64,000 nt of DNA from Dehalococcoidia bacterium. Lineage in GTDB: Bacteria; Chloroflexota; Dehalococcoidia; Lucifugimonadales; G958296245. The stretch lies in assembly GCA_965262055.1 (NCBI GenBank), contig CBDHEI010000002.1:3156347-3220346 (forward strand), given 5' to 3'. The notes under the pieces were generated by a model, which saw nothing but the letters and a program-made list of their open reading frames with translations, had not been told where the DNA came from and did not search any database. Below, piece by piece: positions 14,732-62,121 of the stretch (its first letter is position 1; each line of letters opens with the position of its first letter). Both the position numbers and the translations under genes were made by a program.

Positions 14732-14776
14732 CTTCTGGCTACCTCATTCATTCCTGCTAGTACGTCCAAACGTGGT

Positions 14777-14908
14777 GGAGGAATCCTTCCAGACCTTCCT
14801 TCAGATCCCTTCCTGGACAGGAAGGGTAGAGATTTTGTATGTGAGGGATACCCTCAGACTCCCGGCAAAGGGGCTCCGCCCCTCTGCACACGCCGTATTT
14901 TAGCAGCC
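14777..14908 (-). repeat. copy A of a ~130-145 nt hairpin-rich intercistronic repeat (between ctaC and ctaD)
   Basis: The core gtgagggataccctcagactcccggcaaaggggctccgcccctctgcaca is near-identical to 22132-22180 and 24331-24380. It contains three local hairpins. Confidence 0.8.
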
Positions 14909-14933
14909 TACTAAGATTCGGGCCGCGGCCCGT

Positions 14934-17148: not shown

Positions 17149-17954
17149 GTGAACCGTCTACGCCTTGCCTGGGCCGGTGTAGCGGCTGCTGTGCTGATAG
17201 GGGTGGCGGTGCTGATTGCCGTCGCGCTGAACGTCGGGCGGACGAGCCCGGAGCGAGATGCGGCTGGTCCGGCAGTCTCGGGCGACGCGACGTCTCCACA
17301 GACAGAAGCTTCTTCGGAAGCCGCGCGGGGCGAGACGCAGGAACCGTCGACAGCAGCGACGGACACGGAGAGTGCGGACGCTTCGGGTACGGTCTCCCCC
17401 GGAGACGACGAGGAGGTCGTGCTAACGGACCCGCTGGGAGGGGTCGGGATGGACCCCTCTGTGGCGGAGGCGTTCCCGGACTTTGCGCGGGTACTGGGTA
17501 AGGACGACATTCTCCCGATCTACGACCCGGTACTGGTCCGCGCCGAGGAGGCGGGCCTGCAGGACGATGACCACGTGATGGGGCTGGCGATAGACGGGGA
17601 GGCCAGGGCCTACCCTGTGAGGGAGCTCTTCTCGCGGGAGATGGTCAACGATGAGGTTGCGGGCGTGCCAGTGCTGGTCACGTGGTGACCGATCTGCAAC
17701 ACCGGTCTCGTGCACGACCGGCGGATCGAAGGCAAGGCCCACGTGTTCGGGAACTTCGGGAAGCTGTACCTGAAGGCGATGACGTGGTGGGACCACGAGA
17801 CCGGCAGCGTCTGGTCGCAACCCTTGGGGCAGGCGCTCAAGGGTCCCTACAAAGGAACACGGCTGGAGATGATCCCGGTGGCGGTACTGCCCTGGAAGTC
17901 ATGGAGGAACGAGCACCCCGACACCTTGGTGTTGAAGGTGGACAACCCTTTCGA
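17149..17954 (+). pseudogene. DUF3179-domain protein, 5' part (split by IS; in-frame TGA at the first Cys of the CxxC motif)
   Basis: An N-terminal TM helix is followed by GLAIDGEARAYPVRELFSREMVNDEVAGVPVLVTW-TGA-PICNTGLVHDRRIEGKAHVFGNFGKLY...SVWSQPLGQALKGPYKG. The family motif as I recall it is VTYCPLC. The reading frame continues after the IS at 19645. Confidence 0.75.
17690..17728 (+). other. SECIS-like stem-loop immediately 3' of the in-frame TGA
   Basis: The lower stem is CGATC (17690-94) paired with GATCG (17724-28). The upper stem is CCGGTC (17702-07) paired with GACCGG (17716-21). The 8-nt apical loop TCGTGCAC has GU at positions 25-26 counted from the U of UGA. Confidence 0.3.
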
Positions 17955-19637
17955 ACCTGTCTCACAAAGGGTTGTTGGTGGTGATGGGGAGCACTGCATT
18001 GGTTGGTCGGATCCGCTGGGGGCCGGGTTGGCGTGTCATGGCAGTCCGTGTGCGGGGAGGATGGCGGTCTGGCGCTCCTGGCATCCCCAGATTCGGGCCG
18101 AAGTTGCCGTCCAAGAGGTACGTCCGTGACGCCACATGTCCGCCCCGGCCCGCCAGATGCGCCAGAGGGTGCGCAGGTTGAAGGCCGTGGCCAGCAGCGT
18201 CCATTCGGCCGCGACATTGGCGATGCCGCGCAGCAGGAACCTGCGGCCTGCCTGCTGGTCTTTGATGATCCCGAAGACCGGCTCGATCAGCCCTTGCCTG
18301 CGCTCATAGGACCGGCTCGCCTCCTCGGTCGACATCCACTCACGGTGGACACGCAGCGCAGCATCGTGAGGCCCTATCTCCAGTGCGCGACCATAACGAG
18401 CGTCCTTCGTACAGGTCCCGAAGGCAGGACACGCCCGGCAGACGGCGCCGGAGGCCCGGTACCGCCGCATCGGCACCCCATGATTGCGCTTGATGCGTAT
18501 GAAGCGCAACGCCTGACCCTGGGGGCATCTATAGCTGTCGCTGCTCTCGTCGTAGGTGAATCGGTCCTTGTGGTACGGACGCCGCAGCGCACGGCGCTGG
18601 GACTCTGGCATCGCCACCCGCTGGCCCCTGCTGGCGCACTCCTCCAGCGCCTGCCCCGAATGGTAGCCCGCATCGGCCAACGTCATGTCCGCCCTGGCGC
18701 CCGTATTGTCCTCGGCCTTGTCCAGCATCGGAGTCAACTGGCCGTGGTCGTCCGGTTCGTCCACCACCTCGACCGCCGTGATCAGCATGCCTGCACGCTG
18801 TCCGTCGGCAGTCCGTGCGGGCGAGGCCATCGCCTGCGCGTTGTAGCCGGGCATGACGCCCTGGCGTGTCTTCATCAGACGAGCCTCTCGGTCGGTCAGG
18901 TTGATGCGCCGTCCCTCCTCGTTCGAAAGATCGTCCATCGCCTGGCGCACCTGCTCTCTCAGGACCCTGTTGTCGTACAACTCCTGCGGCAACTGGGCGG
19001 TTGGAGCATCCTCTCCCGATTCGTTCTGGGACTCCAGGTCGCTTATCGCACGCTCAAGCCGCTCCAAGAGCCGCCGCAGTCCCTCCGCATCGTATGTCCT
19101 GGCCTTCGATGCGTTGGCTCCAACCTTCGTCCCGTCCACCGCCTGCAACGCCAGGTCCACCAACTCCATCTTCACCGCCATCCGAACCGTACGCTTGAAC
19201 AGCCTCCTCATCGCCTGGCGGTGGCTCTTGTAGAACCTCCAGAGTGTGTTGTGGTCCGGATATTGCACGCACGTCAACCACAGGTACGGTATCTGGTCCC
19301 GGCAGGCCGCCTCCAACTTGCGGCACGAGCGCACTCCGGTCATGAAGCCGTACAGCCACACGCTCAACAGCGCTCGAGGATGGTACGAAGGAGGCCCAAG
19401 ATCACCTCCGTCTATTTCCACCCCAAGCTCCGCCCAGTCCTCTCGGTCGAGTGCGTCCACCACCTCGGCCACGAACCGCGAAGGGTGCTCGGCAGGGATC
19501 AGGTCGCCCAGGCTCGGAGGCATCAGCCACATCTGTTCTCGGTCCATCGCTCGCAGCGGCATCCATCTCTCCATCGCGGCCAGGATGGCCACAACTATAT
19601 TCTTCCATACCCCACTGCACGACTTATGAGACAGGCT
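17955..19637 (-). mobile_element. IS1182-family insertion sequence (~1.68 kb)
   Basis: The imperfect terminal inverted repeats are acCTGTCTCAcaa at the left end and ttaTGAGACAGgct at the right end. It is flanked by the 7-bp direct repeat CTTTCGA (17948-54 and 19638-44). Removing it restores the DUF3179 reading frame. End positions are +/-2 nt. Confidence 0.8.
18036..19592 (-). CDS. IS1182-family (IS5-like DDE) transposase
   Basis: The 518-aa product has LMPPSLGDLIPAEHPSRFVAEVVDALD (DUF772-like N-terminus), a DDE core, and RCPQGQ...CRACPAFGTCT near the C-terminus. Confidence 0.85.
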   Translation of the reverse strand: MAILAAMERWMPLRAMDREQMWLMPPSLGDLIPAEHPSRFVAEVVDALDREDWAELGVEIDGGDLGPPSYHPRALLSVWLYGFMTGVRSCRKLEAACRDQIPYLWLTCVQYPDHNTLWRFYKSHRQAMRRLFKRTVRMAVKMELVDLALQAVDGTKVGANASKARTYDAEGLRRLLERLERAISDLESQNESGEDAPTAQLPQELYDNRVLREQVRQAMDDLSNEEGRRINLTDREARLMKTRQGVMPGYNAQAMASPARTADGQRAGMLITAVEVVDEPDDHGQLTPMLDKAEDNTGARADMTLADAGYHSGQALEECASRGQRVAMPESQRRALRRPYHKDRFTYDESSDSYRCPQGQALRFIRIKRNHGVPMRRYRASGAVCRACPAFGTCTKDARYGRALEIGPHDAALRVHREWMSTEEASRSYERRQGLIEPVFGIIKDQQAGRRFLLRGIANVAAEWTLLATAFNLRTLWRIWRAGADMWRHGRTSWTATSARIWGCQERQTAILPAHGLP

Positions 19638-19644
19638 CTTTCGA

Positions 19645-20270: not shown

Positions 20271-22046
20271 TCAGCGGCCTCTGAGCCGGGCGGTCTCTTC
20301 GTGGTCGATGGCCAGGCGTCTGTCTACACGCTCTACCCCGACGTCATAGAGGTCTCTGGCTGCCTGCGCTGAAATGAACCCCTGGCTGACGTCGTCCAAC
20401 ACCCTGTTGACCTCGCGCTCGGGGGTGGGGCCAAAGCCTCCGCCGCCCGGGGACTCGATCAGCACCTGGTCCCCCGCCTCGACGACGCAGTTGGCAAACT
20501 TGGCGGCGCTCACCGTGCCGTAGACTTCGGAGAAGGTCCTGAACCTGTCGTCGCCCTTCTTCTTGACGAGCACAGCCGCGTTGCCCCCGGACCCTCCACC
20601 GAACAGCCCCCAAGGGTTGACGCTCACCCGCTCAAAGACCGCGCTGACGGTGATTTTGGCAGGTTCTACAACCTCCAGGACGCGCCGGATCCCGAGACCG
20701 CCACGGTACCGGCCCGGCCCCGCAGAGTCCTGGACGAGCTCGTAGGAGATGGTGCGCCACGGGTAACGGGAGTCGAACACCTCAACGGGTGTGTTGCGGC
20801 AGTTGCCATTGGGTACCACAACAGCGTTGTTGCCGTCCCGGCTGGCGCTTCCGCCCCAGCCGCAGCCCTCGAAGTTGTAGACCACGTAGTACTCTCCGGT
20901 CTCCGGGTGCTCGCCGCCGAACAGGAAGTTGCAGGAGGACCCTCCCTCTGCGGCGGCCACCCGGTCGGGCACCGCCTGGCTGAGGGCGCCTAACACTATG
21001 TCGACGATCCTGGGGTGGGTCTCTGTATTGCCGCCGACCGATGGGCCAGGGTGCTGGACGTTTACCACGCTGCCCGGCGGGGCGATGATCTTGATGGGGC
21101 GGTAGGCGCCCGAGTTGTGCGGAATCTCCTTGTCGGTGGCGTGGAAGATGCCGTTGTAGGTGGCTGAAGCCGTGACCCCGTAGGTGCAGTTGATGATGCC
21201 CTGGGCTTGGGCATCCGAGGCGCTGTAGTCCGCTATGAGCTCGTCTCCCCGTACGACGAGGTTGAGGCGTATCCAGGTCGGGTCGTTGGTTACGCCGTCG
21301 TCCTCTACGCAGTCCTCGAAGTAGTAGTCGCCGTTGGGGATGCGGCGTATCTCCTCCCGCATCCAGCGTTCGGCATGGTCCATGAGCTCCTCGTTGGCCT
21401 GGTTGACGAAGTCGACGCCATACCTGTCCAGCAAGTCTTTCAGGCGCTCCTCGGCAACGTGGAGCGACCCGATCATGGCATGGAAGTCGCCCCAGGTATG
21501 GGAAGGCGTGCGGTGGTTGGTGAGGATCACCTTCCAGACATCTTTGGCATACTCGCCCCGGCGCATGATTTTGACCAGCGGAAGGCGCAGTCCCTCCTGG
21601 TAGACCTCGGTGGCGGTGGCGGCGAACGATCCCGGCGCCATGCCTCCGATCTCGGCGACGTGTCCGATGTTCGCAACGAAGCCGAAGATCTCTCCTTCGT
21701 GGTAGACGGCCTTGATCACGGCGTGCTCCGGCATGTGGCAGCCACCGCGGTACGGGTCGTTGTGAATAACGACGTCGCCCGGCTCGAAGTTCTCCAGCCC
21801 GTACTCCTCGATGGCCCACTTGATGGTGTAGAGGATTGCCCCGAGCTGGGCTGGGCAGAACTCCGCCTGCGCGATCATGTCGCCGTTGCGGTTGAAGATC
21901 ACGCACGAGAAGTCGAGGCCCTCGTTGAAGATGGTCGAGTAGGAGGTCTTCATCATGGCGATACCCATCTCGCGGCAGATGTTGACCAGCTTGTTGTGGA
22001 GTACGCTCAGCGTGACTTGGTCTATGGCGGGTCCGTCGTGCGCGAT
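20271..22046 (-). CDS. hyuB: hydantoinase B / oxoprolinase family protein (HyuB-like); N-terminus extended to a non-canonical ATC start
   Basis: The ORF track starts at 21968 (MGIAMMKTSYSTIFNEGLDFSCVIF). The same frame stays open upstream and encodes the family-typical AHDGPAIDQVTLSVLHNKLVNICRE. AGGAGG lies 6 nt before an ATC at 22046-22044. No ATG, GTG or TTG is available in frame. Confidence 0.7.
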   Translation of the reverse strand: MAHDGPAIDQVTLSVLHNKLVNICREMGIAMMKTSYSTIFNEGLDFSCVIFNRNGDMIAQAEFCPAQLGAILYTIKWAIEEYGLENFEPGDVVIHNDPYRGGCHMPEHAVIKAVYHEGEIFGFVANIGHVAEIGGMAPGSFAATATEVYQEGLRLPLVKIMRRGEYAKDVWKVILTNHRTPSHTWGDFHAMIGSLHVAEERLKDLLDRYGVDFVNQANEELMDHAERWMREEIRRIPNGDYYFEDCVEDDGVTNDPTWIRLNLVVRGDELIADYSASDAQAQGIINCTYGVTASATYNGIFHATDKEIPHNSGAYRPIKIIAPPGSVVNVQHPGPSVGGNTETHPRIVDIVLGALSQAVPDRVAAAEGGSSCNFLFGGEHPETGEYYVVYNFEGCGWGGSASRDGNNAVVVPNGNCRNTPVEVFDSRYPWRTISYELVQDSAGPGRYRGGLGIRRVLEVVEPAKITVSAVFERVSVNPWGLFGGGSGGNAAVLVKKKGDDRFRTFSEVYGTVSAAKFANCVVEAGDQVLIESPGGGGFGPTPEREVNRVLDDVSQGFISAQAARDLYDVGVERVDRRLAIDHEETARLRGR

Positions 22047-22057
22047 GTCTTGCCTCC

Positions 22058-22200
22058 TACCAGGCTGCGGAAGAACACTCCCAGACCTTCCTTCGGGCGC
22101 TCCCCTTTCAGGAAGATAGAAAGAGATTATATCTGAGGGACACCCTCAGACTCCCGGCAAAGGGGCTCTGCCCCTCTGCACTCCCTGTTCTTCAGTAGCC
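22058..22200 (-). repeat. copy B of the hairpin-rich intercistronic repeat (between hyuA and hyuB)
   Basis: ctgagggacaccctcagactcccggcaaaggggctctgcccctctgcac plus shared flanks. The ends form an imperfect inverted repeat (GCTGCGGAAGAACA / TGTTCTTCAGTAGC). Confidence 0.8.
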
Positions 22201-22203
22201 CTC

Positions 22204-24237
22204 CTAGTCTATGATTACTATTCCGCGGTCGGTGACGGTGAGCCGCCTCTCAGCCGGTAGGGCGACGGTCGAGTCGGCGTCGTCGATCACGGCCGGCCCC
22301 TGGATGACGCTGCCCGGCGCAAGCTCGTGCCTGAAGTATACGGGACAGTCCCGGGCGCCTTCCTGGCCCAGGTGTACAGGGCGTAACGCGGGGGTCGCTC
22401 CCTTTCCAGGGGCGCCGCGCCACAGGGGCAGGCGCACCTTCGGGACCGCTCCTATGACGCTGACGTTGAAGTGGATGAGCTCAATTACTTCGCCGGGCAT
22501 CTCGTAGCCGTAGAAGCCCTGGTGCTGGCGATGAAAGCGGCCGAAGACGTCATGGATGGCGGCTTTGGTGATGCGCCCCGGAGGCACCGACACGTCCTGC
22601 TCGTAGTTCTGGCCCATGTAGCGCATGCTGATGGACCGCTGTACGAGCGGCTCGCCGTCGAAGCCCTCAGAGGCAAGGTCCTCAAGCGCGGACATGGTGA
22701 GGGACTCGAAGCGCTCGTCGATTCGGTCTACGTCCAGGGCGTTGGAGCGGTACGCGTGTGTCCACGAGCGGTCGACCCGGAGGTCGGCCACCAGGGTCCC
22801 GAAAGCGGATGCGAGGCCGGCGTTGGGCGGTATGATCACGCGCCCGATGCCGACCGCGTCGGCCAAGGCGACGGCGTGAAGCGGCCCGGCTCCTCCCATG
22901 GCTACCAGATCGAGGTCCCTGGGGTCGATACCGCGCTCCACCGTCACTAGCCTTATGGCGTCGGCCATGTTCTCGTTGGCAAGCCGCACGATAGACAGCG
23001 CGACTTCCTCAACCCCAGTACCCAGTCTCTCGGCCACGCGGCCCAGGGCCTTGACCGCCTTGTCGTGGTCCAGCTTCATGCGGCCGCCCAGGAAGTAGTC
23101 GGGATTGAGCCAGCCGAGCACGAGGTTTGCGTCGGTGACCGTGGCGTCTGTGCCCCCAGCGCCGTAGCAGGCCGGGCCAGGCTCAGCGCCCGCGCTCTGC
23201 GGGCCGACCTTGAGGAAGCCGCCTTTGTCGATCCAGGCGATGGAGCCGCCGCCCGCCCCTATGGTGGTCACGTCGATGAAGGGGGTAGCGACCGGGAGTC
23301 CCCACTCGACCTGGTACTCGGTCGTGAAGCCGTACTCTCCGTCGACAACAAGTCCGACGTCCGTGCTGGTTCCGCCCATGTCCAGCGTTACCACACTGCG
23401 GCTGTCGACCAGATCTCCGAAGTAGCGTCCGGCGATGACTCCACCGGCGAGACCTGACAGGAGAAGCTGAACGGGATATTCACGGGCGGAAGCGGCGACC
23501 ATCTGGCCACCGTTGGACTTCATCAGCTGAAGCGGCACCTTCAGGCCCCGTTCCTTGAGACCCGCGTCGACATCGCCCGCAAAGCCGGCCACAAGGTGCT
23601 TGACGTAGGCGTCGGCCAGGGTAGTGGTGCCACGCTCGTACTCTCTCCACACGGGGGCGACGCGGTGGGAGAGCGACACGGGCAGGTGCGGGAACTCGTC
23701 CCGGAGGAATTGGCCTAGCCTCTGTTCGTGCTCGTGATGGGCATAGCTGAACAGGAGGTTGACGGCTAGGGCAATGGGGCCCTGCGTTTCGGCCACGCGG
23801 ATACGAACGACGGAGGCGATGCGCGCGAGCTCGGCGTCCGCGAGCGGGGCCAGGACACTCCCGTCTTTGGATATGCGCTCGTTTACCCCGATGCAGTCCC
23901 GGCGCTGGGCGAAGGGGGCGGGTTTGATCCAGGAGAGGTCGTAGTGGTGGCGACGGTTTATGCGCTGGATGAAGGGGACATCTTCGAACCCCTTCGTGGT
24001 CAGGTAGAGCACCCTCGCGCCCGACCTCTGGTGGAGGGCGTTGATGGCTATGGTTGTCCCGAGGACGAGGTAGGAGATGCCTTCCGGGCCTATGCCCGAG
24101 GCCTCCAACGCGTCGAATACGCCCTCATGGGGGACTCGCGGCGTCGATGGCCGCTTGGCGACCAGTATCTGGTCACCATCGTGGTCGATGGCCACCAGGT
24201 CGGTGAAGGTGCCTCCCGTGTCGATTCCCACACGCAT
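22204..24237 (-). CDS. hyuA: hydantoinase A / oxoprolinase family protein (HyuA-like, ATP-dependent)
   Basis: MRVGIDTGGTFTDLVAIDHDG... is the actin-like ATPase N-terminus. ORF 22204..24282 was trimmed to the ATG at 24237 because the 15 upstream codons fall inside repeat copy C. Confidence 0.85.
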   Translation of the reverse strand: MRVGIDTGGTFTDLVAIDHDGDQILVAKRPSTPRVPHEGVFDALEASGIGPEGISYLVLGTTIAINALHQRSGARVLYLTTKGFEDVPFIQRINRRHHYDLSWIKPAPFAQRRDCIGVNERISKDGSVLAPLADAELARIASVVRIRVAETQGPIALAVNLLFSYAHHEHEQRLGQFLRDEFPHLPVSLSHRVAPVWREYERGTTTLADAYVKHLVAGFAGDVDAGLKERGLKVPLQLMKSNGGQMVAASAREYPVQLLLSGLAGGVIAGRYFGDLVDSRSVVTLDMGGTSTDVGLVVDGEYGFTTEYQVEWGLPVATPFIDVTTIGAGGGSIAWIDKGGFLKVGPQSAGAEPGPACYGAGGTDATVTDANLVLGWLNPDYFLGGRMKLDHDKAVKALGRVAERLGTGVEEVALSIVRLANENMADAIRLVTVERGIDPRDLDLVAMGGAGPLHAVALADAVGIGRVIIPPNAGLASAFGTLVADLRVDRSWTHAYRSNALDVDRIDERFESLTMSALEDLASEGFDGEPLVQRSISMRYMGQNYEQDVSVPPGRITKAAIHDVFGRFHRQHQGFYGYEMPGEVIELIHFNVSVIGAVPKVRLPLWRGAPGKGATPALRPVHLGQEGARDCPVYFRHELAPGSVIQGPAVIDDADSTVALPAERRLTVTDRGIVIID

Positions 24238-24255
24238 GACATGACCGCCTAGACC

Positions 24256-24398
24256 CACCAGGCTGAGGAAGAACTCTTCCACATCTTCTTCTGGGCTCTT
24301 CCCTGTTCCCAGGGAAGAGAGGAATTATATCTGAGGGACACCCTCAGACTCCCGGCAAAGAGGCTTCGCCCCTCTGCACACCCCGTTTTTCAGCAGCA
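24256..24398 (-). repeat. copy C of the hairpin-rich intercistronic repeat (between the P-loop-like gene and hyuA)
   Basis: ctgagggacaccctcagactcccggcaaagaggcttcgcccctctgcac, plus a perfect 10-bp hairpin CTCTTCCCTG-ttcc-CAGGGAAGAG (24296-24319). Confidence 0.8.
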
Positions 24399-24400
24399 CC

Positions 24401-25126
24401 TTAAGTTTGGCTGCGGCACTTGTGCCGCTCGCGCCTTTCGGTGTCGTCGGACGAGAGTAACGGCTGGATCTTACCGGCGAACTCTGCCAGCGTTTCTTCC
24501 ACCGTGGCGGAGGTGGTGTCCAGAGAGAAGCGGTTAGGGATGGTTGACCGCTCATACTCCTCTCGGAACCTGTTCAGGACGTGCTCAACGTCGGCTTCCA
24601 GGACGACCTGCCGGGGATGCGGGTCTGCCTTCATCCGGCTGCGTATCGTGTCTGGAGATGCCTCCATGAGCACGAGGACGAAGTCGGGCGCTGCCTCCAG
24701 TAGGGCCCTCTCGACAGTCTTCTTGACGATGCTGCGGGCGCCGGGCTGGCCATCGGCCCCGTAGTAGAAGTAGAGCGGGCCGTAGACTGAGTCCTCGATG
24801 TGCATTCCGACGGCCAGGTAGTCCGAGTAGAAGCCCTGCTCCTCCTCGTGGCCCTTCCTGAACGCGCCGGGCTGTATGTGGTAGTAGAGGCTGTGGCGCT
24901 GCATCTGCTCCTTGACCTTCGGCGCCAGGGCGAGAAGGCCTTCCTGCTCATCCTCGGCCATGAAGCTGTCGGTGTCGATGGGCCAGTGGCCGGTGACGTT
25001 GGGAATCTTCCAGTGGTCGTGGAAGAGGCCGAAGTCGGCGCCCATCTGCTCGGCGCCCCAGCGGTATATCTCCTTGGCGAGGGTCGTAGTGCCGACGTAC
25101 TCGCATCCGACGAGCAGTATCCTCAT
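24401..25126 (-). CDS. P-loop NTPase-like protein with degenerate Walker A
   Basis: MRILLVGCEYVGTTTLAKEIY has GxxxxGTT in place of GxxxxGK[ST]. The ATG at 25126 overlaps the upstream stop as ATGA. Confidence 0.5.
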   Translation of the reverse strand: MRILLVGCEYVGTTTLAKEIYRWGAEQMGADFGLFHDHWKIPNVTGHWPIDTDSFMAEDEQEGLLALAPKVKEQMQRHSLYYHIQPGAFRKGHEEEQGFYSDYLAVGMHIEDSVYGPLYFYYGADGQPGARSIVKKTVERALLEAAPDFVLVLMEASPDTIRSRMKADPHPRQVVLEADVEHVLNRFREEYERSTIPNRFSLDTTSATVEETLAEFAGKIQPLLSSDDTERRERHKCRSQT

Positions 25127-36289: not shown

Positions 36290-36355
36290 GCTTGGTGCCG
36301 GGGTGGATAGGTGCTAACATTCGGCTCGCTACTCTTAACGACGGGAGATGCCACG

Positions 36356-38020
36356 ATGGACCATTCCAAGGCGATAGTTATCTCTGACCTGAGCGTCTGC
36401 CAGCCGCAGACAGCAGTGACCCCTGGGCACCTTAAGTACCACTGGCAGGCGACGCCGTACGAGGCCGAGGGCGTCTCTGGCACCCTGCTCTTCGCCGGGC
36501 CGGAGACGGAGGCGCCACCCCTGACCCTGCCCCTGGAGGTGTCCGGCTGGCACGCGATATTCGTAGGGCTGTGGAGCAACTGGACGCCGTCGCTGCTGAA
36601 GATCAAGCTGACCAGCGACCCGGCCTACGTGACGATGAACCGGGAGGAAGCTCCCAACGGCCGGGTGGACAACTTCACCACGGACGAGCGTTTCTTCAAG
36701 TACGCCGACCTGACGAGCGAGGAAATCATGCTGGCGCAGCAGGGAGGTGGCGCACCGACCCCAGCGTACATCACGTACGTAAAGCTGGTGCCCCTCTCGG
36801 ACGCCGAGGTGGCGGCCATAAAGGCCGAGAGGGCCGGTAGCGAGACCAAGCGCCTCTTCTTCATGAACGACGGGTTCAGCAACTTCGGCACGTTGAGGCC
36901 CACTACCGTCGAGGATATTTGGCAGTGGCTGGAGCCGTACCGGGACACCGACTTCAAGACGCTGCTCTGGTGTCCGGGCGCCGGCGGCGACGTGCTCAAC
37001 TACATTTCGGAGTACGGGGGCCTGATAGGGGACAGCACGACCGACTACCCGCGCGTCAGCGACAGGCAGAACGCCGAGTCGCACCAGATACTCGCAGGCA
37101 AGGGCATCGACCCGATGAAGACGGTCATCGACTACTGCCACGCGATGGGCGTGCAGGTGCACGTGAGCAATCGGATGGAGGCGTTCCAGTGCTCGCCGCC
37201 CTTCGAGGAGTTCTTCACGGGGCGGTTCTACACGGAGCATCCAGAGTGGCGCTGCGTGGACATCGACGGGCGGGAGATCGCCAGGATGAGCTACGCCTAC
37301 GAGGGCGTCCGCGACCTGATGCTCAACATGTTCAAGGAGGCGACGGACAAGTACGACGCCGACGGGGTGAACCCGATATTCAACCGGGGCGCGCCGTTCC
37401 TGCTGTACGAGCAGCCTCTGCTGGACGGGTTCGAGGCGGAGACGGGTCTCGACGCCCGGCAGCTTGCAGAAGACGACGAGCGGTACTTGCGATACAGGGC
37501 AGGGGTAATGACGGACTTCATGCGCAAGCTGCGCCGGGAGCTGGACGCCATCGGCGAAAAGAAAGGCCGGAAGCTGGAGGTCTCGGCCCACGTGCTGAGC
37601 AACGAGGAGACCAACCTGTTCTTCGGCCTGGACGTGCCCACGTGGATCGAGGAGGGGCTCATAGACAACCTCATCTCCTACCCGTGGCGCGACGTCGAGC
37701 CAGACGTGGCTTACTTCGGGAGCCTGACTAAGGGCACGCCGGTCAAGTTCTACCCGGAAGTGATGCCGCGCCGCATGTCGCCGGAGCAGTACCGGCTCCG
37801 TGGCATCGAGAACTACGCGGCCGGCTCGGACGGCATGTGCTTCTGGGACACGAACGGGCGCGACCAGATGCGCAAGGAGTGGAGCATGCTGAGGAGGCTG
37901 GGCCACAAGGACGACCTGGCAGGATGGGACGACGGCGAAGGCAAGTTCTGGCGGTCGCGGAAGATGATCAGCGTGGGCGGTTACGTGCTGGACAAGTACC
38001 CGCCGCACTGGGCTTTCTGA
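36356..38020 (+). CDS. uncharacterised ~555-aa protein, paralogue 1 of a three-gene tandem array
   Basis: It starts MDHSKAIVISDLSVC and ends GGYVLDKYPPHWAF. It is collinear with 38064..39770 and 40949..42627. Confidence 0.75.
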   Translation: MDHSKAIVISDLSVCQPQTAVTPGHLKYHWQATPYEAEGVSGTLLFAGPETEAPPLTLPLEVSGWHAIFVGLWSNWTPSLLKIKLTSDPAYVTMNREEAPNGRVDNFTTDERFFKYADLTSEEIMLAQQGGGAPTPAYITYVKLVPLSDAEVAAIKAERAGSETKRLFFMNDGFSNFGTLRPTTVEDIWQWLEPYRDTDFKTLLWCPGAGGDVLNYISEYGGLIGDSTTDYPRVSDRQNAESHQILAGKGIDPMKTVIDYCHAMGVQVHVSNRMEAFQCSPPFEEFFTGRFYTEHPEWRCVDIDGREIARMSYAYEGVRDLMLNMFKEATDKYDADGVNPIFNRGAPFLLYEQPLLDGFEAETGLDARQLAEDDERYLRYRAGVMTDFMRKLRRELDAIGEKKGRKLEVSAHVLSNEETNLFFGLDVPTWIEEGLIDNLISYPWRDVEPDVAYFGSLTKGTPVKFYPEVMPRRMSPEQYRLRGIENYAAGSDGMCFWDTNGRDQMRKEWSMLRRLGHKDDLAGWDDGEGKFWRSRKMISVGGYVLDKYPPHWAF

Positions 38021-38063
38021 CTAGGGCAAGGCGCCGGGAGAGGCAATAGAAGGAGGGGTTCCG

Positions 38064-39770
38064 ATGGACCATTCCAAGGCGGTCTACATTACCGACATGG
38101 GGGTTTGCACCCCGGCCGCGGCGCTCTCTGCCGAGCACCGCAAGTACCGGTGGCAGACGGTGCCGTACGAGGCCGAGGGAGTGTCGGGGACGATGATCTA
38201 CTCCGGGCCGGAGACGGACACGCCGCCGGTGACTCTCCAGCTGGGAGTCTCAGGGTGGTACGCGGTGTTCCTGGGGCTGTACAGCAACATCCACAGCGCG
38301 AGGCTCAAGGCGCGCCTGACCGGCGACCGCGGCTACACATGGTTCGAGCGCGAGGAGTCGGAGGCGGGCTCCACCGACCCTGTCTACTCAGGTCCGTCAG
38401 CGGGCAGGGTGGACAGCTACGCACTGGATGAGCGGTTCTGGAAGTACGCCGATCTTACCGGCCAAGACATCGTATTCGCGGCGGATGTGGCCAATTCCGG
38501 CCCGACCCCGGCATACGTCGCCTACGTGAAGCTGGTGCCCCTGTCGGACGCGGAGGTCGCGGCCGTACAGGCGGGCCGCGCGCCGGACGCGGAGACGAAG
38601 CGGCTGATACTGATGAACGACGCCTTCAGCGAGTACATCTCGCTGCCCCACCACGATCCGAGGCAGACGATATGGGACTGGCTGGAGCCCTACCGGGACA
38701 CCGACTTCAAGACGTTGCTCTGGTGCGCATGCCAGGGCGACGCCGCGCACTACCCGTCGAGGGTCGTCCCGATCATCGGCTCCGGCACGACCGACTTTCC
38801 CAGGGACATAGACCGGACGATCCACGAGTCGATCACGGACCTGGCGGGCAGGGGCGTAGACGCGCTGCACGAGGTCATAGAGTTCTGCCACGAGGCAGGG
38901 ATACAGGTCCACGTCAGCAACCGGATGGAGTCGTTCCAGTGCTCGCCGCCCTTCGAGGAGTTCTTCACGGGGCCGCTCTACCTGGAGCACCCGGAGTGGC
39001 GGTGCTCCGACATAGACGGGCGCGAGATCGCCCGCATGAGCTACGTCTACGAGGGCGTGCGCGAGCTTGTCATGGACATATTCAGGGAGTACGCGAACGA
39101 CTACGACATTGACGGCATTAACCCGATCTTCAACCGGGGCGCGCCCTTCCTGCTCTACGAGCAGCCGTTGCTGGACGGCTTCAGGGCGGAGACGGGACTC
39201 GACGCCCGCGAACTGGACGAGCACGACGAGCGGTACCTGCGCTACCGGGCTGGGGTGATGACGGAGTTCATGCGCGGCCTGCGCAGGGAGATGGACGAGA
39301 TAGGGGAGAGGCGCGGCAGGAAGATCGAGATCTCGGCGCACGTGCTGAACGATGAGGAGACGAACCTGTATTACGCCCTGGACCTGGCAGCGTGGGTGAA
39401 GGAGGGGTTGGTCGACAACCTCATATCGTACCCCTGGCAGAACTTGGAGATTGACGTGCCCTACTTTGTGGGGCTCACGAGGGGTACGGGCGTGAGCTAC
39501 TACAACGAGGTGATGCCCCGGCGGATGCCGCCGGAGGAGTACCGGCAGCGTGCCATGGCGGACTATGCGGCGGGGGTGGACGGGCTGTGCTTCTGGGATA
39601 CGAACGGACGGGACCGCTTCAAGAAGGAGTACAGCATGATCAGGCGCCTCGGCCACAGGGACGAGCTCGCCGGATGGGACGACGGCGACAGCGAGTTTTT
39701 CACTACGAGGCGGATGCTCAGCGTGGGCGGCTACGTCATGGACAAGTACCCACCGCACTGGGCCTACTGA
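38064..39770 (+). CDS. uncharacterised ~568-aa protein, paralogue 2
   Basis: It starts MDHSKAVYITDMGVC and ends GGYVMDKYPPHWAY. Blocks shared with paralogue 1 include LEPYRDTDFKTLLWC, HPEWRC.DIDGREIARMSY.YEGVR, FNRGAPFLLYEQPLLDGF and CFWDTNGRD. Confidence 0.75.
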   Translation: MDHSKAVYITDMGVCTPAAALSAEHRKYRWQTVPYEAEGVSGTMIYSGPETDTPPVTLQLGVSGWYAVFLGLYSNIHSARLKARLTGDRGYTWFEREESEAGSTDPVYSGPSAGRVDSYALDERFWKYADLTGQDIVFAADVANSGPTPAYVAYVKLVPLSDAEVAAVQAGRAPDAETKRLILMNDAFSEYISLPHHDPRQTIWDWLEPYRDTDFKTLLWCACQGDAAHYPSRVVPIIGSGTTDFPRDIDRTIHESITDLAGRGVDALHEVIEFCHEAGIQVHVSNRMESFQCSPPFEEFFTGPLYLEHPEWRCSDIDGREIARMSYVYEGVRELVMDIFREYANDYDIDGINPIFNRGAPFLLYEQPLLDGFRAETGLDARELDEHDERYLRYRAGVMTEFMRGLRREMDEIGERRGRKIEISAHVLNDEETNLYYALDLAAWVKEGLVDNLISYPWQNLEIDVPYFVGLTRGTGVSYYNEVMPRRMPPEEYRQRAMADYAAGVDGLCFWDTNGRDRFKKEYSMIRRLGHRDELAGWDDGDSEFFTTRRMLSVGGYVMDKYPPHWAY

Positions 39771-39807
39771 TCCCCGGCGAGAGATAGGGAGTCTACGGAG
39801 GAGCCCG

Positions 39808-40563
39808 ATGTATACGACCGACATGTATGAGGGGATGATTGCGGAGACGATCACGGTGCGAGGGCACGGCGGGGACGTTGTGAACGCCTACCTGGCGCGG
39901 CCCCTGGGACCGGGGCCGCATCCCGGCATGGTGCTCGCTCACCATATGCCCGGGTGGGACGAGTGGTACCGGGAGACGGCCCGGAAGTTCGCACACCACG
40001 GCTACGCGACGATCTCGCCCGACCTGTACCACCGTGCCGGGCATGGCACGCCCGACGACGTGGCCGCCAAGGTGCGCTCGGAGGGCGGAGCGCCGGACGA
40101 CCAGGTGGTGGGCGACCTTGCCGCGTCGATGGAGTATCTGCGCTCTCTGCCGAACTCCAGCGGGAATGTCGGCGCGTTCGGGACGTGCTCTGGCGGGCGC
40201 CACGTGCTGCTGACGGCCTCACGCGTGCAGGGGTTCGACGCGGTGGTCGACTGCTGGGGCGGGCGCGTAGTCATGGCAGAGTCCGAGCTGACGCCGCAGA
40301 CTCCGGCCGCGCCCATCGACTACACGGCAGACCTCTCCTGTCCGGTCCTCGGCCTCTTCGGAGAGGACGACAGCAGTCCCTCGCCGGAGCAGGTCGCCCT
40401 ACACGAAGAGGCACTGAAACGGCATGGCAAAGAGTACGAGTTCCACATGTACGCCGGAGCGGGGCACGGATTCTTCTACTACGACCGCTCCGTCTATCGC
40501 CAGGAGCAGGCAGTGGACGGCTGGCGGAAGGTATTCGCCTTCCTGGCGAACCATCTCGCGTAG
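39808..40563 (+). CDS. dienelactone hydrolase family protein
   Basis: ITVRGHGGDVVNAYLARPLGPGPHPGMVLAHHMPGWDEW...GTCSGG...AGHGFF. Confidence 0.75.
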   Translation: MYTTDMYEGMIAETITVRGHGGDVVNAYLARPLGPGPHPGMVLAHHMPGWDEWYRETARKFAHHGYATISPDLYHRAGHGTPDDVAAKVRSEGGAPDDQVVGDLAASMEYLRSLPNSSGNVGAFGTCSGGRHVLLTASRVQGFDAVVDCWGGRVVMAESELTPQTPAAPIDYTADLSCPVLGLFGEDDSSPSPEQVALHEEALKRHGKEYEFHMYAGAGHGFFYYDRSVYRQEQAVDGWRKVFAFLANHLA

Positions 40564-40597
40564 GGGCGTCCCCCACGCTGAACTGAGGAGTAAGGCG

Positions 40598-40876
40598 ATG
40601 TGCACCATGATCACCGAACAGGGCGCCATAGCCGGCAGCGGCAAGGGCACTCCAGGCTGGATCGAGGTCGACCGGGTCAACGTGTCGTACGACCACCCGG
40701 CCCACATGACGATAGAGCACACCCTGAACATCGATTTCGTGAACGCTTCCGGGGGGCTAAGCGACCGCGTGGCCGTCGAGCTGACGCGCCAGTCAGCCCG
40801 CCAGCTCGTAGACCTGATCGGCGCCGCCCTGGAGCGGGGCGCAGAGGTGGACGGCCCGGAGCCGGTCCCGGCATAG
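40598..40876 (+). CDS. small hypothetical protein (92 aa)
   Basis: The ATG at 40598 is preceded by gaggag. The product is MCTMITEQGAIAGSGKGTPGWIEVDRVNVSYDHPAHMTIEHTLNIDFVN. The family is not known to me. Confidence 0.5.
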   Translation: MCTMITEQGAIAGSGKGTPGWIEVDRVNVSYDHPAHMTIEHTLNIDFVNASGGLSDRVAVELTRQSARQLVDLIGAALERGAEVDGPEPVPA

Positions 40877-40948
40877 CCGCTGCCACAGAAGTGTACAAAT
40901 CGAGCTTGGCACAACGTATCGGGAAGCAGGAGTAGCGGGAGGCAGGAG

Positions 40949-42627
40949 ATGGACCATTCCATGGCCGTCTACGTAACCGATCTGAGCGTGTGCACGCCGG
41001 CGGCGGCCTTGTCCGCGGGGCGGCGGAAGTACCACTGGCAGACTATCCCGTACGAGACGGAGGAGTTCTCGGGGGTGATGCTGTCCACCGGACCGGAGAC
41101 GGAGGCCCCGGAGGTCACGCTGCCGTTGGGCGTGACCGGATGGCATGCGGTCTTCATCGGACTGTGGGGGACGGAAAGCCAAGACGTGTGGGGCGATGGC
41201 ACGAACCAGGACACGGTCAAGGTGCGCCTCAGCGACAACCCCTGCTTCACGCGCATAGTGCGCGAGGACCTGGACTACTTCACCTTCGACGAGCGCTTCT
41301 GGATCTACGCGGACCTGACGGGCAGGGACATCGTCTTCGGGCAGCAGATGAGCGGCTGGCCGGCGCGCGCATATCCCGCCTACGTGAAGGTCGTGCCTCT
41401 GTCGGACGCCGAGGTAGAGACCATCCAGAGCGAACGGCAGCGCGAGAATACGAAAACGCTGATCGGCATCGCCTGTGAAGGGGACGACTACCTGGGAAAC
41501 CTGCGGCCAACGACCCGCGAGGAGATATGGGAGTTGGTCGAGCCGTACCGGGATACGGACTTCAGGCAGCTCTTCTGGTGCGTCGGCAGCGGCGGCGACA
41601 TTTGCACATACCCGACGCGTATCGGCGCGTTGCAAAACGTAGAGAGGGAGGACCGGTCGCGGCCCTTCGACCGCGTAAAGGGCGAGGCGCTGAGCATCCT
41701 GCTGGGGGGAAGGGCATCGACCCGCTGGAGGAGGCCGTCAGCCATGCGCACAAGCTGGGGCTGGAGATGAATGCCCAGCTACGCATGGGGGCCTTCCAGG
41801 CGGCGCCGCCTCTTGAGGGGACGTACACCGGCCCTGTGTGGGGCCGTCACCCCGAGTGGCACTGCATCGACATAGACGGCCGCGAGATCGCCCGCATGAG
41901 CTACGCCTTCGAGGGCATGCAGGACTACGTGCTGTCGTTGCTGCTGGAGCTGGCGGGATACGACGTGGACGGCGTATGCATGACCTGGGTCAGGGGCGCG
42001 CCCTACGTGCTGTACGAGAAGCCCTTGGTGGAGGGCTTCAAGGCGAAGACGGGGAAGGACCCGCGCGACCTGCCGGAGGACAATGAGGAGTACTTGCGCT
42101 ATCGGGCTGGATTCATGACGGCTTTCGCTCGAAAGGTGCGCCGCGCCATGGACGAGAGGGGACGGCAGCGCGGGCGCAAGGTCGAGCTGCTCACGCACGT
42201 GCTCAACGACGAGGACGCCAACCTGTTCTACGGGTTCGACGTAGAGACGTGGGTGCGCGAGGGGCTCATCGACACACTGATCCCTTACCCCTGGCGGGAG
42301 AAAGACATCGACGTGGCGTACTTTGCAGGGATCACCGGCGGCACTTCGGTGTCGCTACGCCCGGAGATCATGCCTCGAAGCATGCCGCCGGAGCAGTTCA
42401 GGCGGCACGCCCTGGACTTTTATGACAAGGGCGCCGAGGGATTCTGCTTTTGGGACACGGAGGGGCGGCACCTGCGCAGGGCGGAGTGGAGCATGATGCA
42501 GAGGCTGGGCCACAAGGATGATCTGGCCGGCTGGGACGACGGAGAAGGGGAGTTTTTCCGTTCAATTAAGCTTCGCAGCCTGGGCGGATACGTGATGGAC
42601 AAGTACCCGCCGCTGTGGGCCTATTGA
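40949..42627 (+). pseudogene. paralogue 3 of the ~560-aa family, frameshifted in a G6 run (41704-41709)
   Basis: Frame A (40949..) reads ...GEALSILLGG. Frame B continues KGIDPLEEAVSHAHKLG...GGYVMDKYPPLWAY. Joined, these align with ...HQILAGKGIDPMKTVIDYCHAMG of paralogue 1. Confidence 0.7.
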
Positions 42628-42654
42628 CCGCCATGCCACGATGGCCCAGGGCGG

Positions 42655-46520: not shown

Positions 46521-46612
46521 GGAGGGATCGCATAGTGGTCTAGTGCGGCCGCCTGCTAAGCGGTTAGGGGGAGAAATCCCTCTCATGGGTTCGAATCCCA
46601 TTCCCTCCGCCA
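46521..46612 (+). tRNA. tRNA-Ser (anticodon GCU), long variable arm, CCA encoded
   Basis: The acceptor stem is GGAGGGA/TCCCTCC. The anticodon stem-loop is gccgc-CTGCTAA-gcggt. A long variable arm and the T-loop ggttcgaatcc are present. The 3' end is gCCA. Confidence 0.9.
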
Positions 46613-48013: not shown

Positions 48014-49216
48014 TTGGTAACCACACTGCGAAAGCCAACCATCCCAATCACCGAGATAGAGCAGTCAGCCTTTTGCCAGCCGGAGGACGAGCTCAAGTCG
48101 AAGACGCTGGCTGAGGAGTTCGACGCCAGCGTGCGCTGGCAGAAGCTGCCCACCGAGTACCTGAAGAAGACGCCGGAGGAGCTTGAAGCCCGTATAGCCG
48201 AGGCGAGGGCCAAGCTGGGCTCCAGGCTCGTCATCCTGGGACACCACTACCAGCGCAACGAGGTCATCAGGTTCGCCGACCTGCGGGGCGACTCTTTCAA
48301 GCTGTCGCAGTACGCCGCCTCTCAGCGGGACGCCGAGTACATAGTGTTCTGCGGCGTGCACTTCATGGCGGAGACGGCGGACGTGCTCAGCGCTCCGTCC
48401 CAAAAGGTGGTGCTGCCGAACCTGACAGCCGGCTGCTCCATGGCCGACATGGCCCACATCGACGACGTGCTCGACTGCTGGGACGACCTTCACGGCCTAT
48501 TCGGGGACAGTGTAATTCCCATCACCTACATGAACTCCACGGCGGCCATAAAGGCGCTGTGCGGCCGCAACAACGGCATCGTGTGCACCTCCACCAACGC
48601 GACGGCGACCTTCAGGTGGGCTTTCGAGCGCGGGGAGAAGGTGCTGTTCCTGCCCGACCAGCACTTGGGCAGGAACACCGGTGTGAAGCTCGGCGTCGGC
48701 CTGGACGAAATGGTCGTGTGGAACCCGTTCAAGCCCATGGGGGGCCACACCGAGGAGGAGCTGAGCCGGGCGAAGATCATACTCTGGCAAGGCCACTGCT
48801 CCGTCCACACCAGGTTCAAGGTCTCCCAGATAGAGGAGGCCCGAAGGCGCTACCCCGACGTGACCGTAGTGGTACATCCCGAGTGCTTCAGGGAGGTGGT
48901 CGAGGCCGCCGATATGGACGGCTCCACCGAGTACATAATCAGGGTCGTCAGCGAGGCGCCACCCGGCAGCGTCTGGGCTATTGGCACCGAGATCAGCCTC
49001 GTACACCGGCTCGCCCAGGAGAACCCGGACAAGACGGTCTTCTGCTTGGACTCGGTCGTCTGCCCATGCTCGACCATGTACCGCATCCATCCGGCGTACG
49101 TGTCGTGGGTGCTCGACGGACTGAACGAGGGGGTCGTAGTCAACCGCATCGAGGTGGAGGGGCAGACGAGGGCCGAGGCGCGGGTGGCTCTGGACCGCAT
49201 GCTTTCCGTGGCTTAG
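48014..49216 (+). CDS. nadA: quinolinate synthase
   Basis: LVILGHHYQRNEVIRFADLRGDSFKLSQ...VFCGVHFMAETADVL...HPEC.... The start is assumed to be the TTG at 48014, after the miaB stop, and is uncertain. Confidence 0.8.
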   Translation: MVTTLRKPTIPITEIEQSAFCQPEDELKSKTLAEEFDASVRWQKLPTEYLKKTPEELEARIAEARAKLGSRLVILGHHYQRNEVIRFADLRGDSFKLSQYAASQRDAEYIVFCGVHFMAETADVLSAPSQKVVLPNLTAGCSMADMAHIDDVLDCWDDLHGLFGDSVIPITYMNSTAAIKALCGRNNGIVCTSTNATATFRWAFERGEKVLFLPDQHLGRNTGVKLGVGLDEMVVWNPFKPMGGHTEEELSRAKIILWQGHCSVHTRFKVSQIEEARRRYPDVTVVVHPECFREVVEAADMDGSTEYIIRVVSEAPPGSVWAIGTEISLVHRLAQENPDKTVFCLDSVVCPCSTMYRIHPAYVSWVLDGLNEGVVVNRIEVEGQTRAEARVALDRMLSVA

Positions 49217-61288: not shown

Positions 61289-62121
61289 ATGGTACGAAGA
61301 CTGGGAGTATATGGAGCCGTTGCGGCGATGGTGGCGCTGGTTATGGCGCTGGCGGCCTGCGGCAGCAGGGAAGTGATTAAGGAAGTGCCCGTGGAGGTGG
61401 TGGTCGAGAGGGAAGTGGTCAAAGAGGTACAGGTGCCGGGGGAGACGATAGTAGTAGAGAAAGAGGTGGTAAGGGAGGTACAGGTGCCGGGCGAGACGGT
61501 GGTGGTGGAGAAAGAGGTAGTAAAGGAAGTGCCGGTAGAGGTGGTGGTCGAGAGGGAGGTTGTGAAGGTGGTGGAGGTTCCGGTTGAGGTGGTGGTCGAG
61601 AAAGAGGTGGTCAGAGAGGTGGAGAAGGTGGTCGTGGTGGAAGTGGTGAAGGAGGTCGAAGTAAGCACGCCTTCCACTTCCCCTGCACCGACAACCAAGT
61701 CCGGTGGGACGCCGCCTGCGACAACCTTCCAGGATTACCAGCGGGAGAGGTTCGTATCTGCGGCGCAGGACGCGGTATCGACCTTCAGCCTCGATACCGA
61801 CCGCACGTCGTACTATCTGGCCCTCAACTGGGCGCGCACTGGCTACAAAGTGGAGCCTGACTCCGTCAGGGCAGAGGAGTGGATCAACGCCTTCAACTAT
61901 GGCTACGAAGCACCGCTTCACAGCGACAGCTTCGCCATATCGACCGACGTGGTCAGCCACCCCCTGGACGGCGGGCTGCACCTCGCGCGCATCGCCTTCC
62001 AGGCGCCCAAGATGAGCTCCGACAGCACCCCGGTCAACGTGACCCTAGTGCTCGACGCCTCCGGCTCGATGCGCACGGGCAACCGGGTGGACATCGCCAG
62101 GGAGGCCGCCGAGAGCATAAG
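61289..62121 (+). pseudogene. vWA-domain lipoprotein, 5' part (split by IS1380-family element)
   Basis: The lipobox is VALVMALAACGS. A Val/Glu-rich repeat linker follows, then FQDYQRERFVSAAQDAVSTFSLDTDRTSY...EEWINAFNY...VNVTLVLDASGSM, the start of the vWA MIDAS motif DxSxS. Confidence 0.75.
61370..61660 (+). repeat. in-frame tandem repeats encoding a (K/R)EVV(K/R)EV.VP.E..VVE linker
   Basis: REVIKEVPVEVVVE REVVKEVQVPGETIVVE KEVVREVQVPGETVVVE KEVVKEVPVEVVVE REVVKVVEVPVEVVVE KEVVREVEKVVVVEVVKEVEV. Confidence 0.8.

Follow-up and report, generated by a model that had tools for sequence, protein, structure and literature searches.

A 64,000-nt stretch of a Dehalococcoidia bacterium genome (contig CBDHEI010000002.1; hereafter the window) carries three copies of a repeat, A, B and C, which lie between coxB (COX2) and coxA (COX1), between hyuA and hyuB, and between a 241-aa ORF (24401-25126) and hyuA, respectively. 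The genes flanking all three copies are on the minus strand, so that minus is the strand co-transcribed with them, as the first-pass annotation of this DNA had stated. With at most one mismatch allowed, a 26-mer from the core is found on the plus strand at 14845, 22137 and 24335, against a chance level of 0.00 in 100 shuffles, and the three copies join as one 144-nt direct-repeat family. Copy C had been placed at 24256-24398, close to the better boundaries of 24259-24400 that its TIRs provide. The features are listed below.

14757-14760 and 14912-14915: tetranucleotides flanking copy A, CTAG and CTAA
14761-14911, plus strand: MITE copy A, between coxB and coxA (nhmmer E = 7e-33)
22057-22060: one target duplication of copy B, GTAG on the minus strand, which restores the hyuB TAGGAGG Shine-Dalgarno context
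22061-22203, plus strand: MITE copy B, between hyuA and hyuB (nhmmer E = 2e-31)
22204-22207: the other target duplication of copy B, CTAG, which on the minus strand gives the TAG stop of hyuA
24235-24237, minus strand: true start codon of hyuA, ATG, giving MRVGIDTGGTF
24259-24400 (142 nt): MITE copy C, with the plus strand in family consensus orientation and the minus strand sense with the flanking genes
24259-24274, plus strand: left TIR of copy C, CAGGCTGAGGAAGAAC, with 3 mismatches to the family TIR CAGGSTGCTGAAAAAC
24296-24319: H1 of copy C, CTCTTCCCTG (24296-24305), ttcc, CAGGGAAGAG (24310-24319), a perfect 10 bp
24330-24348: H2 of copy C, TCTGAGGG-ACA-CCCTCAGA, part of the conserved core
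24355-24377, minus strand: H3 of copy C, GCAAAGAGGC (24355-24364), TTC, GCCCCTCTGC (24368-24377)
24385-24400, plus strand: right TIR of copy C, GTTTTTCAGCAGCACC
24401-24404: target TTAA beside copy C on the side of the 241-aa gene, holding on the minus strand the TAA stop of ORF 24401-25126

Copy C matches the family profile with an nhmmer E of 1.4e-31 and has TIR matches at 24259-24274 and 24385-24400. Read on the plus strand, its H3 contains two A·C mismatches (24358·24374 and 24361·24371), both of which are G·U on the minus strand, so that this hairpin is fully paired only on minus; the H3 arms of copies A and B (GCAAAGGGGC/GCCCCTCTGC) contain one A·C. These readings, made in the first pass, were confirmed in the sequence, as was the perfect 10-bp H1 of copy C, which differs in sequence from the H1 of copy A.

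The exact core 20-mer CCCTCAGACTCCCGGCAAAG matches at least 106 stretches, every one of them in a Dehalococcoidia/Chloroflexota MAG; both strands are represented, and a single genome often has several matches. A family profile built from 17 full copies was searched over 875 kb drawn from more than 30 MAGs and gave 189 matches, of which 71 are full length and 70 lack the exact 20-mer. Copies are 142-151 nt long and, in the consensus, run YTAR, CAGGGTGCTGAAAAAC, CCTTTCGACCATCCCCCTGG, H1 (CCCCCTTCCTGGCCAGGAAGGGGG) and AAGAAATTATAT on the left, H2 (CTGAGGG-ACA-CCCTCAG), ACTCCCG and H3 (GCAAAGGGGC-TTC-GCCCCTCTGC) in the middle, and ACACCCC, GTTTTTCAGCAGCCTG and YTAR on the right. Full copies end in ~16-nt TIRs (CAGGGTGCTGAAAAAC and GTTTTTCAGCAGCCTG), the helix of which is 74-76% complementary over 61 copies; H2 and H3 form the best-conserved part, a ~50-nt core, and the hairpin loops vary among copies. 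Inspection for small conserved ORFs within the element found indels between the hairpins that break every frame, and these are frequent enough to preclude a conserved ORF.

At this length the element falls among short non-coding MITEs, for which the upper size limit is ~300-500 bp, and it has TIRs, target duplications (TSDs) and many dispersed copies with presence/absence polymorphism. Copies A, B and C belong to this MITE family, which shows every structural hallmark of the class save an autonomous partner, of which the fetched loci gave none. The first-pass annotation had described a structured-RNA repeat and did not recognise its transposable nature, which the TIRs, TSDs and filled and empty sites show. 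No description of MITEs in this class was found in the searchable literature, by which the family is new for Dehalococcoidia; the kind of element is already known.

In 25 of 56 copies the two flanking 4-mers are the same, where permutation gives 14.1 ± 2.4 (p < 5e-5), and identical flanks other than the palindrome CTAG are direct in nine cases and inverted in none. The target logo is YTAR (C/T-T-A-G/A), with nothing beyond. A YTAR target with a 4-bp duplication is what is published for IS5, which duplicates YTAR (PMC5009759), including CTAG (PMC10379815). TAR spells a stop codon, and insertion therefore often hits the end of the preceding reading frame: of 42 full-length copies with co-directional genes on both sides, 12 have the upstream stop inside their TSD, and the positions of copies B and C coincide exactly with the stops of the genes before them. 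The TSD preserves the stop, and at copy B also the hyuB Shine-Dalgarno, so that the element is tolerated between genes of one operon. Targeting specific to Shine-Dalgarno sequences was considered and rejected, as a sequence of that kind adjoins the TSD in only ~14% of copies.

Relatives without the element were found at three junctions. In loci L112 and L113, where HyuA is 87-88% identical, the hyuA-hyuB spacer is 9 nt with a single GTAG and no element, the empty site reading ...GTAGA, GTAG, GAGGCAAAC and ATG (GTAG, then GAGGC..ATG). The filled site of the window and L114 reads ...ATAGA, CTAG, 143 nt of element, GTAG, GAGGCAAGAC and AT(C/G). Judged from this alignment of filled and empty sites, copy B is an insertion exactly at the hyuA stop where it overlaps the hyuB Shine-Dalgarno, and the duplication restores both. 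The coxB-coxA spacer measures 202 nt in the window versus 82-104 nt in four relatives without the element, in which it is too diverged to give exact boundaries for the empty site.

Orthologues of copy C are present in L107, L114 and L112, and the site is empty in L113. In L112 it is filled (CTAA/CTAA) after a 238-aa gene; in L113 the TAG stop of that gene lies in a single TTAG, and window copy C occupies that same stop codon. On the hyuA side of copy C the tetranucleotide is CCAC (24255-24258), and the second TSD is not preserved. L112 and L113 carry a FAA_hydrolase gene (1533-2468) between the MITE site and hyuA that is missing in the window and L114, where the MITE abuts hyuA (with 24238-24258 as flank in the window) and the target duplication on the hyuA side is gone. 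This looks like a ~1-kb deletion adjoining copy C in the window and L114, and the missing hyuA-side TSD fits such a loss of the neighbouring FAA_hydrolase gene.

A 15-codon N-terminal extension of hyuA was held in the first pass to lie inside the element and probably not to be coding. The second part stands, the extension being an artefact: Pfam Hydant_A_N begins at residue 17, and element-free HyuA homologues (87-88% identity, 679 aa) begin MAIRVGIDTGGTF, aligned with the ATG at 24237 (MRVGID). The first part applies to only a portion of the extension from GTG-24282, in which 24259-24282 is element and 24238-24258 is flank. For hyuB, the start codon (22044-22046, minus strand) reads ATC in the window but ATG in L114, the N-terminal sequence being otherwise identical; the next hyuB ATG (21968) would lose 26 conserved residues, and L107 has the same 565-aa call. 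The ATC may reflect initiation at a non-canonical codon, damage to the gene or a fault in the assembly. The annotation of Dehalococcoidia MAGs is affected, since the element produces spurious N-terminal extensions (hyuA is one case) and leaves long "intergenic" gaps in operons.

No autonomous IS sharing the MITE TIRs was found among 106 fetched 8-kb loci. All TIR pairs 0.4-4 kb apart enclose housekeeping genes between two MITEs, matches to the left end only adjoin TldD and queuosine genes and no transposase, and a scan of the fetched loci for orphan TIRs gave 2 matches and no IS. The window does hold an IS of 1683 bp (17955-19637) with a DDE_Tnp_1_6 + DUF772 transposase (18036-19592, minus strand), TIRs ACCTGTCTCACAAAG and AGCCTGTCTCATAAG, and the TSD CTTTCGA at 17948-17954 and 19638-19644. 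It was rejected as a partner: the shared AACCCTTTCGA is target DNA, and its TIRs (ACCTGTCTCACAAAG) and 7-bp TSD mark it as unrelated to the MITE. This IS interrupts a DUF3179 gene, and the insertion is recent since the near-identical contig L107 has an uninterrupted DUF3179 site.

Mobilization would occur in trans by a DDE transposase of IS5 type, a type assigned from the 4-bp YTAR duplication alone. The element shares with the IS5 family and its derived MITEs the direct 4-bp YTAR duplication (CTAG more than TTAG or CTAA), TIRs and an intergenic preference (PMC5009759, PMC10379815); unlike them, it has no transposase partner sharing its TIRs in the fetched loci, and the likeness is drawn by target duplication. 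Correia elements, MITEs of Neisseria, are also non-coding, ~100-150 nt long, bounded by TIRs and present in many intergenic copies, and are co-transcribed with neighbouring genes with TIRs able to pair in RNA (PMC10969869), but their target duplication is TA, they contain an IHF site and promoter elements and are substrates of RNase III, and they have no sequence similarity to the element described here. The ERIC/IRU repeats of enterobacteria are likewise intergenic, imperfectly palindromic and carried within operon transcripts, and the effect of ERIC on mRNA level depends on the transcribed orientation (PMC10969869); they differ in sequence, phylum and target (TA), and an orientation effect is inferred here from counts only.

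REP/BIME elements resemble the family in their GC-rich hairpins between operon genes and mosaic modules. REPs, however, measure 20-40 nt, lack both TIR and TSD and are associated with RAYT genes. It is highly improbable that the element is of REP/BIME or IS200/IS605 type, moved as single-stranded DNA by a Y1 enzyme (RAYT/TnpA) such that G·T pairs and asymmetry would have meaning in DNA. Multiple conserved hairpins, mosaics of small hairpin modules with nested inserts, and the strand asymmetry would all suit such an origin, but full copies have TIRs and a direct 4-bp duplication, both of which elements moved as single strands lack, and no RAYT or TnpA gene was seen beside the copies.

Orientation was scored against genes called by our own codon-bias caller, which was trained on long ORFs and reproduced the Pfam-supported genes of the window. 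Between co-directional genes the minus strand is sense in 77 copies and the plus strand in 24 (p = 1e-7), though copies sharing a genome do not count as independent events. Stricter gene calls give 64:20 and, at the highest stringency, 41:9; with one count per locus the ratio is 45:16. It is very unlikely that this bias is set at insertion by replication direction (beta-clamp) and linked to genes only through the co-orientation of genes and replication. Some DDE families, including an IS5 subgroup in Firmicutes, do show an orientation bias relative to replication (PMC3971601), but at sites whose flanking genes oppose the majority direction of the 8-kb locus the element goes with the flanking genes 18:8, and the near-palindromic YTAR target gives no orientation cue. 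With no such cue in the target, the simplest reading of the bias is a filter on retention that acts through the transcript.

After insertion, the element would be transcribed within the operon mRNA, folding into hairpins, and insertions would be retained about three times more often with the G-rich minus strand as sense RNA. Transcript orientation may matter because the C-rich plus-sense RNA is harmful, through polarity or pairing with ribosome-binding sites; alternatively, the minus-sense hairpins may be harmless or mildly useful in mRNA end protection or processing. With H3 G·U pairs derived from a master copy, RNA of the favoured orientation would be better paired with no locus-by-locus tuning. 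A stricter proposal, which we regard as possible though somewhat doubtful, holds that the bias reflects selection against plus-sense RNA only, its C-rich, G-poor linkers loading Rho (polarity) or pairing with the GGAGG of the next gene, and that minus-sense RNA is functionless. The plus strand is indeed C-rich (GC skew -0.17; linkers -0.52, -0.61 and -0.94), and the next start codon is more distant from copies in the disfavoured orientation (median 120 nt versus 38 nt in the favoured orientation, p = 0.02). Tight junctions (both gaps at most 60 nt) have 24:3 versus 54:21 elsewhere, in the same direction, but this contrast is not significant (Fisher p = 0.11).

The strand-specific G·U wobbles of H3 had been taken in the first-pass annotation as a sign that the element functions as sense RNA. 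Pairing was computed for both strands on one alignment of 61 full copies: 97.4% of H3 cells are paired as minus RNA versus 86.0% as plus RNA, with about 98% (97.9-98.6%) versus 97.1% in H2, 86.3% versus 85.3% in H1, and 74.4% versus 75.5% in the TIR helix. The asymmetry is limited to H3, where one column is dominant. Across 163 copies this main wobble column is A·C in 138, G-C in 16 and T·C or C·C in 9, the last two states being unpaired on both strands, and it is never A-T. The main H3 wobble is a single inherited site with a drifting partner base, and its apparent conservation is inflated since its A sits inside the search pattern. Other sites in intact helices have 119 minus-wobbles versus 73 plus-wobbles in pattern-selected copies, and 41 versus 48 among copies that the search pattern did not pick out; counts are symmetric in H1 (43:37) and the TIR helix (48:58). 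A distribution of this kind, without strand bias, had been named beforehand as the outcome that would speak against the RNA reading. Folding of 72 copies gave a lower MFE for the minus strand in 71 (mean -66.8 versus -59.0 kcal/mol), but this difference was discarded as strand evidence because it vanishes against dinucleotide shuffles (z of -2.97 for minus and -3.36 for plus) and is an effect of base composition. Copies with the plus strand as sense have the same hairpin integrity, and the paired fraction of their H3 is 0.915 on minus versus 0.832 on plus; as the asymmetry is equal in both orientation classes, the pattern is not adapted to the transcribed strand.

The H3 G·U pairs are an inherited family trait and no proof of RNA function. 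In copy C the additional G-to-A substitution is the derived state, as the orthologous L114 copy has C (a G-C pair), and it does preserve minus-strand pairing as had been noted, but a single transition with a 50% prior chance of doing so is no evidence of function. In the sense-RNA interpretation, then, the strand was named correctly and the dependence on orientation is real; the wobbles offered in its favour are not diagnostic.

The hairpins nevertheless show signs of structural constraint. Nineteen pairs changed on both sides are compensated, versus 12.0 ± 2.2 in column shuffles, a count reached by 0 of 500 shuffles. They include A-U to G-C compensation in H2 in 5 copies, compensated H3 variants (GCAGAGAACC/GGTTCTCTGC), and two fully compensated pair changes in H1 between window copy C and its L112 orthologue, at what is apparently the same locus. 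C120 of H3 has never changed to T in 163 copies although its partner varies. These changes point to constraint on hairpin structure, which a double-stranded cut-and-paste element does not obviously need; candidate causes are selection at the RNA level, a requirement of the transposase or a host factor, and template-switch correction of quasi-palindromes.

We consider it unlikely that the element acts in the sense operon transcript as a structured RNA with a function (an mRNA stabiliser, processing site or protein-binding module) and G·U as its signature, or is a MITE with a core co-opted by the host. The 77:24 bias tied to adjacent genes, the better pairing of H3 as minus RNA (97% versus 86%), the compensated changes in H1, H2 and H3, the G (= C120) that is invariant facing a variable partner, and the recurrence of the H2 + H3 core in other repeat architectures (the 186-nt tandem repeat of L064; L102, L103 and L105) all speak for this reading. 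Set against them are the wobble ratio outside pattern-selected copies, the symmetry of H1 and the TIR helix, z-scores that under shuffle control do not favour the minus strand, an asymmetry unchanged where the plus strand is sense, the opposite orientation of about a quarter of copies, variable loops, and relatives that do without the element at the same junctions. At gathering score no Rfam model matches the element, the best sub-threshold scores being 17-22 bits for Clostridiales-2 (gathering 58.6) and 22.5 bits for RT-19 (gathering 78.3). A promoter or terminator role was also rejected, as no consensus sites were found: there is no intrinsic terminator (GC-rich stem and U run) on the minus strand of any copy, and a weak 5-bp terminator-like site occurs only on the plus strand of copy C.

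A still more speculative proposal, which we think rather improbable, is that the two-hairpin core (H2, the CGGGAG linker and H3, in which an invariant G faces a variable U/C) is an RNA module exploited by the host in Dehalococcoidia polycistronic mRNAs and spread by the MITE and other repeats; it could be a processing, stability or protein-binding site. If true, it would explain the 3:1 bias tied to adjacent genes, the compensated changes and the core outside the MITE. Some effect of the element at the RNA level is plausible.

Taken as a whole, the account of an IS5-type MITE that is co-transcribed in operons, filtered by orientation and endowed with H3 G·U pairs by inheritance is, in our assessment, probably correct. 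RNA side effects of such elements are well known from Correia and ERIC, and a specialist would not be very surprised by them. The family shows a YTAR-targeting element sitting on operon stop codons with stop and ribosome-binding site both kept, and its 3:1 orientation filter offers many natural cases of what makes inserted RNA tolerable in a bacterial operon.

Several related repeats were observed alongside the family. The H2 + H3 core occurs in a 186-nt tandem repeat (L064, 1850-2469; 3.3 copies, 92% identity) directly after a gene, and MITE copies with nested inserts of ~85 nt and ~25 nt are found in L102 (3064-3150 and 3175-3205), so that these repeats are mosaics built from small hairpin units. 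At several different points in MITE hairpins a 21-24-nt motif, (C)CTTCGRCAGGCTCAGGRCAGGC, is present as an insert, and it also occurs outside MITEs. It is present in L004, L006, L007, L013, L049, L070, L077, L097, L099, L112 and L114, with none in the window; it occupies the same H2 spot in five loci, is bordered by CC or CCC on both sides, and is carried by the copy C orthologues of L114 and L112 and absent from the window copy. Head-to-tail MITE copies spaced ~153-164 nt apart in L030, L053, L066 and L096 apparently share a terminal CTAG, as expected if the regenerated target attracts further insertions.

Other repeats in the window comprise a ~1.7-2.9-kb unit present at 36354-42632 in three direct copies that have diverged to 60-88% identity (families D1-D5 and D7-D9) and are probably tandem paralogous genes, and a 48-51-nt tandem repeat rich in GTGGTCGAGA/GAGGTG at 61400-61642 and also 49121-49171 (family D6), which probably encodes a repetitive protein segment. 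The sole Rfam match at gathering score in the window is an 89-nt tRNA gene at 46521-46609 on the plus strand.
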